This document shows positions 13,596-14,400 of a stretch of DNA of 64,000 nt, in pieces. This stretch comes from a virus (taxonomy: Duplodnaviria > Heunggongvirae > Uroviricota > Caudoviricetes). The stretch lies in the IMG/VR virus record IMGVR_UViG_2721755662_000004; one strand, given 5' to 3'. The translations under genes were made by a program, and so were the position numbers. The notes below the pieces were generated by a model that saw only the letters and a program-made list of their open reading frames with translations, was not told the DNA's origin and did not search any database. How positions within the stretch are numbered: position 1 is the first letter of the stretch; each line of letters begins with the position of its first letter.

Positions 13596-14180
13596 ATGAC
13601 CACTTTTACAAAAGAGCAGTTAATCAGTCATGTTAGTGAAAATGTAAAGGCGATGAAATTTGCAGTAAAACAGACAGCATTCAAAAATTCTCTCGAGGCA
13701 ATTGAGTTGGATTTAGCACTGGCCCTTGTTGCTCAGGCTTCGCTGGAAGCAGAGCCCGTGCTTTATATGAATCGATTTACCGGAAAGACATTCTCACTGG
13801 AAGAGCAACCCGGTGCTGATAAGGAACCGGAAATATACGTGCCGCTATATGCTGCCCCGCCAGACAGCGCCGCCATGCTTCAGGCTGGAAACTTTCGGGA
13901 AAAGAAGGGTTCGTCAACCAATAATTTTCGGGAAATCTCGGAAACGTCAACCAACCATCCGGTAACTCTGGATGGTTGGATAAGCTGTAGTGAGCGAATG
14001 CCGGATGACGGTCAGCACGTAATTATTTTATGTGATGGCGCATTCGTTCTTTATGCGCAATATCGAGACGGTGAGTTTTTTGATGTAGTCCGTGATGGTG
14101 ATGAATTTTTCGAAACACAGAGCCGCAATGTAACCGACTGGATGCCGCTACCAGAACCGCCGCAGGAGGTGCGCCAATGA
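13596..14180 (+). CDS. DUF551-type phage protein
   Basis: C-terminal ...DWMPLPEPPQEVRQ; AAAGGAG SD; a paralog lies at 56748..57476. Confidence 0.65.
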   Translation: MTTFTKEQLISHVSENVKAMKFAVKQTAFKNSLEAIELDLALALVAQASLEAEPVLYMNRFTGKTFSLEEQPGADKEPEIYVPLYAAPPDSAAMLQAGNFREKKGSSTNNFREISETSTNHPVTLDGWISCSERMPDDGQHVIILCDGAFVLYAQYRDGEFFDVVRDGDEFFETQSRNVTDWMPLPEPPQEVRQ

Positions 14181-14260
14181 ACTGGCCTGAAGCATTTGCA
14201 ATTACAGGCGTTGCTATGGCTATCACTTTTTTAGTATATGTTATTTGTCGGTGGGGGTAA
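14177..14260 (+). CDS. Small hydrophobic peptide (27 aa) coupled to the DUF551 gene
   Basis: ATG overlaps the DUF551 stop (ATGA); MNWPEAFAITGVAMAITFLVYVICRWG; a homologous copy with an in-frame amber codon follows the second DUF551 gene. Confidence 0.45.
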   Translation: MNWPEAFAITGVAMAITFLVYVICRWG

Positions 14261-14295
14261 AAACGTTCGCCGGGATTAACACCAAAGGAGGGAAT

Positions 14296-14400
14296 ATGTC
14301 GGATGATATATCACTGGCAATGGAAGGTGCGCTGGCTGTTATTGCTGTTGTGGGCGTTTACTGCCTGGTTGTGTTTTTGATGGATCGACTAGGGAACTGA
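14296..14400 (+). CDS. Small hydrophobic peptide (34 aa)
   Basis: Near-perfect SD (AAAGGAGGG) 7 nt before the ATG; MSDDISLAMEGALAVIAVVGVYCLVVFLMDRLGN. Confidence 0.4.
   Translation: MSDDISLAMEGALAVIAVVGVYCLVVFLMDRLGN

Follow-up and report, generated by a model that had tools for sequence, protein, structure and literature searches.

Do two very short hydrophobic reading frames in the early region of a prophage encode proteins, and if so, are these proteins toxins, regulators or something else? The question is raised by the stretch of DNA analysed here (the window), 64,000 nucleotides of a virus of the Caudoviricetes (IMG/VR virus record IMGVR_UViG_2721755662_000004), in which a gene for a DUF551-domain protein is followed first by p27, a frame of 27 codons (MNWPEAFAITGVAMAITFLVYVICRWG), and then by p34, a frame of 34 codons (MSDDISLAMEGALAVIAVVGVYCLVVFLMDRLGN) that lies ahead of a hok/sok toxin-antitoxin locus. 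An earlier note, made from the DNA alone, had proposed both as small single-pass hydrophobic peptides and possible membrane-active toxins or regulators. We conclude that p27 and p34 are very probably both real, translated genes, and the best explanation overall, which we consider probable though by no means secure, is that they are genuine genes of a lambdoid prophage, each encoding one short inner-membrane peptide with a single span and an accessory, non-lethal role.

Open reading frames (ORFs) as short as these often arise by chance: one 5-kb stretch here is overlapped by 79 of 20 codons or more, so that mere presence is no proof and the case for genes rests on related loci. The sample used for p27 was a set of several hundred related IMG/VR loci, gathered by searching with the DUF551 protein and with alignments of p27.

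Length, coupling and selection at p27

As the earlier note had described, p27 overlaps the stop codon of the DUF551 gene at its start, its ATG (14177-14179) overlapping the TGA (14178-14180) in the sequence ATGA, with a Shine-Dalgarno sequence (SD) upstream (Table 1). The overlap with the upstream ORF is kept in 178/178 distinct 1.6-kb contexts, in nearly all of which a GGAGG-type motif stands 7-9 nt upstream of p27, and the conserved ATGA together with the SD inside the upstream gene gives p27 and that gene the make-up of a translationally coupled pair.

The peptide itself is held just as closely. Among the related loci p27 occurs in 58 distinct versions as DNA and in 32 as peptide, nearly all of exactly 27 codons, and the rare changes in length are in-frame. 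In an alignment of seven divergent variants M1, W3, P4, A6, F7, I23, C24, R25 and W26 are invariant, the conserved residues gathering at either end of the helix (M-x-W-P-E-A-F and I-C-R-W-G), and variation in the hydrophobic core is conservative. The hydrophobic stretch, residues 6-24 with a mean Kyte-Doolittle value of 2.3, has the length of a single membrane span; its acidic N-terminal flank and basic (Arg) C-terminal flank make a topology with the N-terminus out and the C-terminus in likely.

Selection on the frame was estimated by parsimony reconstruction on a neighbour-joining tree, with binomial p values. Of the 192 changes placed on the tree, 108 are synonymous and 84 non-synonymous, and codon position 3 takes 117 of the total. 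The counts correspond to a ratio of non-synonymous to synonymous change (omega) of ~0.26 (p = 3.5e-20), against ~1.5 in the two other sense frames; the pairwise ratio of non-synonymous to synonymous differences (pN/pS) comes to 0.33 in the p27 frame and to 0.9 and 1.7 in the other two. The antisense frame that shares the third positions of p27 is mostly open, as is expected opposite hydrophobic codons. An antisense gene as the source of the codon periodicity was rejected, its start and its length (14 to 114 aa) not being conserved.

These results bear directly on the rival reading that neither p27 nor p34 is a gene, both being accidental frames in DNA that is conserved without coding or is constrained in some other way. 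In its favour are the abundance of short ORFs in the region, the open antisense frame that goes with hydrophobic ORFs and the near absence of p27 from annotations, but third-position variation is specific to the frame, the frames stay intact at a synonymous divergence (pS) of ~0.4-0.7, starts and SDs are conserved and p34 carries ribosome footprints (see below). Already largely refuted by the selection tests and the p34 footprints, the chance reading has a probability that we put close to negligible.

As for annotation, p27 appears in only a handful of GenBank entries, and in ten p34-carrying assemblies the 116-nt gap that holds it is uncalled in all ten; no match to its sequence was found in paper texts and supplements. 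A family of fixed length, with universal ATGA coupling, independence from the upstream domain and a signature of selection, p27 appears to be undescribed in the searchable literature.

Two types of p34 and a published record of translation

The near-perfect SD that had been noticed ahead of p34 is indeed there (Table 1), and a RefSeq coding sequence (WP_001278450.1, hypothetical protein) coincides with the frame. Its hydrophobic stretch, residues 11-29, has a mean Kyte-Doolittle value of 2.7-2.95, and p27 and p34 each have the one such stretch, of 17-19 residues, that a single-pass peptide should have. The exact p34 peptide is present in a protein collection and occurs in 11,444 blocks of an assembly collection. 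Of 5426 complete E. coli genomes, 674 carry the p27-p34 DNA segment, which lies at 1469 places in all and at up to 5 in one genome; it is almost wholly chromosomal, with only 5 plasmid records, and nearly all p34 copies are intact.

The family falls into two divergent types with 47% identity, both of 34 codons: type A (MSDD...), to which the window belongs, and type B (MWEVIVLVLKCALAIAAVMAIYCLVIVLMDHLSD), in which the spacer between p27 and p34 is ~147 nt as against 35 nt in the window. Type A starts at ATG, or in some copies at GTG, behind AAGGAGG. Some type-B copies have ATA, GAG or AAA in place of the first ATG (for example positions 1381-1536 of locus L199), and all have a GTG at codon 6, preceded 5-6 nt upstream by GGAGG or AGGAG in all but one sequence; since the first ATG is sometimes absent and the GTG with its SD is kept, the true type-B product may be of 29 aa. 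Purifying selection is seen in the p34 frame only, with an omega of ~0.32 on the tree (p = 1e-8) and a pN/pS of 0.26-0.30 within each type, compared with 0.75-1.9 in other frames. A phmmer search of 1.84 billion representative proteins returned seven relatives, 79-100% identical, and no distant ones, on which evidence p34 forms an orphan family within E. coli prophages. A tblastn search of a phage collection with p34 gave no match, for which we suspect the low-complexity filter, since a DNA search with 13536-14900 does match phage records.

Translation of this frame is already on record. The O157:H7 strain Sakai carries a p34 family member, ECs_5710, in prophage Sp6, in the same arrangement of DUF551 gene, gap, 34-aa ORF and hok, and among the novel translated ORFs reported for this strain is XECs145, also in Sp6 (Hücker et al. 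PLoS One 2017, PMC5597208), which is p34 with an N-terminal extension to an upstream ATG (162 nt, 54 aa) and contains the identical 34 residues. In lysogeny broth (LB) XECs145 had an RNA value of 79 reads per kilobase per million (RPKM), a footprint RPKM of 346, a ribosomal coverage value of 4.35 and a coverage of 0.99; in brain heart infusion (BHI) the RNA and footprint RPKM were 121 and 150 and the ribosomal coverage value was 1.14, and translation was nearly absent under cold and osmotic stress (PMC5597208). The authors predicted an inner-membrane location (PMC5597208). That study took ORFs of at least 30 codons, which excluded p27 by design (PMC5597208). Ribosome profiling of E. coli K-12 was considered as a test of p27 and rejected: in CPS-53 the DUF551 gene yfdS is followed by yfdT and not by a p27 homolog, which makes the K-12 data unusable here.

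The claim that both frames are real small genes is thus upheld by frame-specific purifying selection, fixed length and conserved ribosome-binding sites (RBSs) for both, and by published footprints for the p34-containing ORF. Ribosome occupancy and conservation of the reading frame, the two signs on which the earlier note had made its proposal depend, are both found for p34, and conservation of the frame is found for p27.

An interrupted second copy of p27

The earlier note had drawn support for p27 from a homolog after the second DUF551 gene of the window. The homolog is present, with the same ATGA overlap and AGGAGG and with 15/27 residues identical to p27, but it is interrupted: it reads MT*PEAFAIVVAAISIALIVFAICRWG, a TAG replacing the invariant Trp-3 codon, and it is for this reason probably dead. 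With a stop at codon 3 the copy supports p27 more weakly than was claimed, and the conservation seen across the family more than replaces it. The TAG allele also occurs in 11 distinct 1.6-kb contexts elsewhere (12 fetched copies), with close relatives that are intact. It is a natural knock-out of p27, and its recurrence shows that a phage can survive the loss of p27. On the opposite strand, directly downstream of this second copy, lies a 63-codon ORF (MFNEEKVAQMAAYLLKKHGG...; 56470-56661, plus strand).

Neighbours of p27 on either side

Is p27 a specific partner of the DUF551 domain? The upstream ORFs fall into at least five unrelated C-terminal classes, the DUF551 type (..MPLPEPPQEVRQ) and those ending in ..RNGLISAEDILR, ..NDLKNIEQEVNR (L0139 of 933W), ..IGQAVWRLEARQ and ..TVPDLLPLENNK, and one identical p27 peptide, MTWPEAFTTVGIAMAVALVVYSICRWG, stands behind four upstream classes. 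A specific partnership was rejected on this ground, and the link with DUF551 is incidental. In sequenced phages the genes before p27 are annotated as Ea22, EaA or DUF551, with p27 itself unannotated, and the Ea22 proteins of lambda and Shiga-toxin (Stx) phages are described as having swappable C-terminal domains (PMC10834534); the Ea22 literature examined makes no mention of a small hydrophobic ORF after Ea22.

Several of the upstream classes end in the same codons, ..EV(N/R)Q*, and the p27 SD overlaps this ending (for example positions 2750-2765 of locus L002 and 1190-1204 of locus L199). The p27 module therefore seems to carry its own RBS together with the tail of the preceding gene, with a recombination boundary that seems to lie inside the end of that gene. 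A frameshift fusion of DUF551 and p27 was set aside on reading the sequence only, as no slippery site was seen and a +1 shift misses the p27 frame.

Downstream of p27 the contexts hold many different modules, with hok following in 122 of the 178. A position at a mosaic junction ahead of so many modules, and the universal ATGA overlap and SD, would both suit a reading in which only the act of translating p27 matters, as a coupling device or upstream ORF that affords Rho protection or opens downstream structure, the peptide being irrelevant. Against this, the selection is on amino acids (omega ~0.26), with nine invariant positions, a conservative core and a length fixed at 27, and a pure coupling ORF would not need such constraint; we regard this reading as very improbable.

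The p34 cassette and its association with hok

The segment that carries p34 (14266-14440) is flanked by an 11-nt direct repeat, GGGTAAAAACG, which has 3 matches in the window against 0.06 expected by chance. In 933W the repeat region is single and p27 leads straight to hokW with no p34 cassette, which suggests that the cassette has been gained or lost through recombination at the repeats. The 22-bp palindrome at the end of the cassette, CGATATGGGAATTCCCATATCG, has no T-run after it and is absent from type-B loci. A 51-codon minus-strand ORF (14389-14544), which some public assemblies annotate, lies antisense to the palindrome and the hok leader and is probably spurious.

The association of the cassette with hok is close: hok is also present in 81 of the 84 contexts with p34-like sequence, both types of p34 stand directly before visibly very similar hok loci in spite of their 47% identity, and the type-B stop lies ~10 nt before the putative hok -35. 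Taken with the near absence of the cassette from plasmids, this could mean that p34 is a functional companion of hok/sok, either as a membrane partner or antidote of Hok or because its transcription or translation into the hok promoter and leader tunes hok. However, hok/sok works on plasmids without p34, hok comes directly after p27 in 933W, 41 contexts have p27 and then hok with no p34, and the p34 stop lies 77 nt ahead of position 14477, where the hok mRNA model begins, so that p34 is not part of the hok mRNA; the adjacency may be simple linkage. A role as companion of hok is, in our judgement, rather improbable. A broader version, in which p27, p34 and Hok form a conserved three-peptide membrane module, p27 being a partner of pro-lysogenic Ea22-type proteins that sways the choice between lysis and lysogeny and p34 a modulator or antidote of Hok, strikes us as distinctly improbable; if true, it would add a protein-level layer of control to a type I toxin.

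At the other end of the locus, the 3' end of the hok transcript (14810-14891) resembles isrK in Rfam at a score below the gathering threshold (31 bits against 50), a likeness that is probably due to the terminator hairpin alone.

Are p27 and p34 toxins?

The remaining rival takes up one of the roles that the earlier note had suggested, with p27 and p34 as membrane-damaging toxins, of type I or of an early-phage host-killing kind, that would collapse the membrane potential in the manner of Hok, TisB or DinQ and be silenced in the lysogen through prophage repression or an antisense RNA so far unrecognised. The resemblance to type I toxins is real in size, single transmembrane (TM) helix and charged ends, both peptides being small and hydrophobic with one helix (Kyte-Doolittle 2.3-2.95 over 17-19 residues); hok/sok and two further toxin-antitoxin pairs adjoin, p27 lies in operons expected to be off in the lysogen, and two weak minus-strand promoter-like sites face p34 and p27.

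The family searches point the other way. Neither peptide matches HOK_GEF (PF01848) at E <= 1, compared with E = 5.6e-24 for the neighbouring hok, and neither matches any family, toxin families included, in Pfam, NCBIfam, PHROGs or PADLOC, where only sub-threshold noise was returned. The ORF list holds no mok-type overlapping leader ORF for p27 or p34, and Rfam has no antisense RNA at either, the sole match, sok at hok (RF01794), covering only 14477-14651, downstream of both. The promoter-like sites do not exceed expectation, with 3 found against 1.8 ± 1.2 in shuffled sequence. An RNA fold of 14150-14480 (z = -2.2) leaves neither SD clearly hidden and is uninformative; the p34 SD has an unpaired probability of 0.46 in it.

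Type I toxins are also characterised by a hidden SD and an absence of translation in growing cells, and p34 instead has a strong SD that is not clearly sequestered, and growing cultures translate it (Sakai in LB, ribosomal coverage value 4.35). The strong SD, the translation in growing cultures, the presence of the segment at up to five places per genome, the scarcity of disrupted copies and the lack of a detected antisense RNA together disfavour a toxin reading of p34, and for the two peptides taken together we consider toxicity unlikely, less firmly so for p27, whose expression should follow early operons that are repressed in a lysogen.

A proposed model of accessory membrane peptides and the points against it

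The explanation that we prefer, of two accessory inner-membrane peptides, can be set out as follows. Ribosomes would start p27 either on finishing the upstream Ea22-type protein or by binding the SD directly, and since p27 is always coupled to the preceding gene, it is expected to be made whenever its early operon is expressed. The peptide would then insert as a single helix, with the aromatic and charged residues W3, F7, Y21, R25 and W26 at the two membrane interfaces. p34, borne on a small cassette directly ahead of the hok promoter, would start independently at its own strong SD and would be made even in growing lysogens. Both peptides may bind or modulate a membrane component, in the case of p34 possibly one linked to Hok. 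What the data show directly is the anatomy of the ORFs, the coupling signals, the purifying selection, the prevalence, the linkage to hok and the published footprints on p34; that the peptides enter the membrane, their topology, their lack of toxicity and any target are inferred, and their action as non-lethal accessory membrane peptides, deduced from expression pattern and copy number, seems to us only slightly the better side of an even chance.

Several points weigh against this explanation. The p34 footprints aside, the existence of the proteins, their membrane location and any effect are predictions from DNA. The sequences compared are short and recombining, with many near-duplicates, and the selection tests overstate their independence. 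The ribosome-profiling support covers the p34-containing ORF only, with p27 outside it, and the 162-nt ORF to which the XECs145 footprints were assigned takes in the 3' end of p27 as well. With 3-4 near-identical copies of the segment in O157 genomes of the Sakai type, multi-mapping of footprints is possible, and the footprints could come from a spontaneously induced subpopulation instead of true lysogens. Finally, the p27 of the second arm has a stop, and with this allele persisting in several phages p27 is dispensable at least there.

Genomic setting of the locus

By DNA comparison the region matches the E. coli FORC_069 chromosome at 100% identity and O104:H4 outbreak strains at 99.9%. The locus lies within the early-right operon of a lambdoid prophage of the 933W (Stx) type, whose gene order runs from replication genes through DUF1627, DUF977, DUF551, hok/sok, a doc-type toxin and a RelE/helix-turn-helix (HTH) pair to the nin genes and Q. 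Three toxin-antitoxin loci thus stand in a row after p34 (14477-16393). A second arm of the same prophage, at ~48-59 kb, holds a 2784-aa ORF of a kind typical of 933W and further minus-strand early-type genes that include the second DUF551 gene. The 2784-aa ORF (47992-56346, plus strand), which adjoins the second DUF551/p27 arm, matches the very large L0134 gene of 933W in position, the likeness being one of position only.

Table 1. Positions of p27, p34 and neighbouring features in the window.
Feature	Position	Strand	Evidence and remarks
DUF551-domain (Ea22-type) gene, 194 aa	13596..14180	+	Pfam PF04448, E = 1.1e-20; RefSeq WP_000206792.1; last codons hold the p27 RBS
p27 SD, AGGAGG	14164..14169	+	7 nt before the ATG, within the DUF551 coding sequence
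p27, 27 codons	14177..14260	+	One predicted TM helix, residues ~6-24
11-nt direct repeat, left copy	14255..14265	+	Spans the p27 stop; bounds the p34 cassette
p34 SD, AAGGAGG	14285..14291	+	4-nt spacer; conserved in all type-A copies
p34, 34 codons	14296..14400	+	One predicted TM helix, residues ~11-29; = RefSeq WP_001278450.1
Perfect 22-bp palindrome	14409..14430	.	End of the p34 cassette; EcoRI site; hairpin in RNA fold
11-nt direct repeat, right copy	14430..14440	+	Bounds the p34 cassette
hok/mok/sok type I toxin-antitoxin locus	14477..14891	+	Rfam RF01794, 110 bits, 14477-14651; HOK_GEF E = 5.6e-24; RefSeq hokD
mok	14589-14801	+	
hok	14646-14801	+	
Terminator-like hairpin	14870-14887	+	End of the hok locus
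doc-type toxin	~15209-15694		Small ORF 14966-15190 in front
RelE/ParE toxin and HTH partner	~15745-16393	-	
Second p27 copy, probably a pseudogene	56668..56751	-	Same ATGA overlap and AGGAGG; TAG at codon 3 (TGG to TAG)
Second DUF551 (Ea22-type) gene, same prophage	56748..57476	-	tblastn E = 3e-28; ORF list

Significance for the study of Stx phages

p27 is a conserved, selected gene in many Stx phages, often with several copies per genome, which falls under the common length limit of gene callers and is missing from essentially all of the phage and genome annotations examined. It stands directly after the Ea22-type genes that are studied for their effects on Stx-phage lysogeny, so that knock-outs and clones of these genes may unknowingly include or disrupt it; the natural TAG allele of the second copy provides a ready-made comparison for experiments. 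Should an effect of either peptide on membrane physiology or on the induction of prophages prove real in Shiga toxin-producing E. coli, this would bear on the release of Shiga toxin. Otherwise, p27 and p34 are two more cases of an under-annotated small membrane proteome.

Comparison with known systems

The known systems nearest to hand are those already described at the locus itself. The genes before p27 are of the Ea22/EaA kind, early proteins with a common N-terminal part and swappable C-terminal domains, DUF551 among them; p27 differs in being a separate gene rather than a domain of Ea22, and it does not co-vary with the C-terminal domain. In the case of XECs145, the published ORF begins at an upstream ATG that has no SD, whereas the conserved SD and start, together with RefSeq, give 34 aa, and the linkage to hok and the type-B variants are absent from the published description, in which no function was studied. 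What is new for p34 is therefore the existence of two types, the probable true start and the linkage to hok; the database entry and the reported translation were already known.

Like Hok/Gef, p27 and p34 are small, single-TM, prophage-borne peptides, and the genes lie within ~250 nt of one another; unlike Hok/Gef, they lack a HOK_GEF match, a mok-like leader and a Sok-like RNA, and they have strong SDs in place of hidden ones, with p34 translated during growth. Of the general signs of a small membrane protein, evidence of translation comes for p34 from the published footprints (PMC5597208) and for p27 indirectly, from the selection and coupling signals. p27 and p34 also differ from toxins of the TisB/DinQ type in having no Pfam or NCBIfam match and no detected antisense RNA. 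These toxins, among them TisB, DinQ, ShoB, Ibs, Ldr and ZorO, are of 18-35 aa with one hydrophobic helix and in this are similar to p27 and p34, but coupling to an upstream gene, as found for p27, is not how they are organised.

A different comparison is offered by MgrB, AcrZ, MgtS, PmrR, KdpF and CydX, proteins of fewer than 50 aa with one TM helix that are made from ordinary SD-led genes and are non-toxic when expressed. As in p27 and p34, conservation in regulators of the MgrB/AcrZ type is concentrated at the ends of the helix. The two prophage peptides have no sequence relationship to these regulators, and differ from them in being phage-borne, confined to E. coli prophages and of no known partner. 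The class to which p27 and p34 belong is a well-known one, that of small single-helix membrane proteins missed by annotation, and their addition to it is useful and not surprising.

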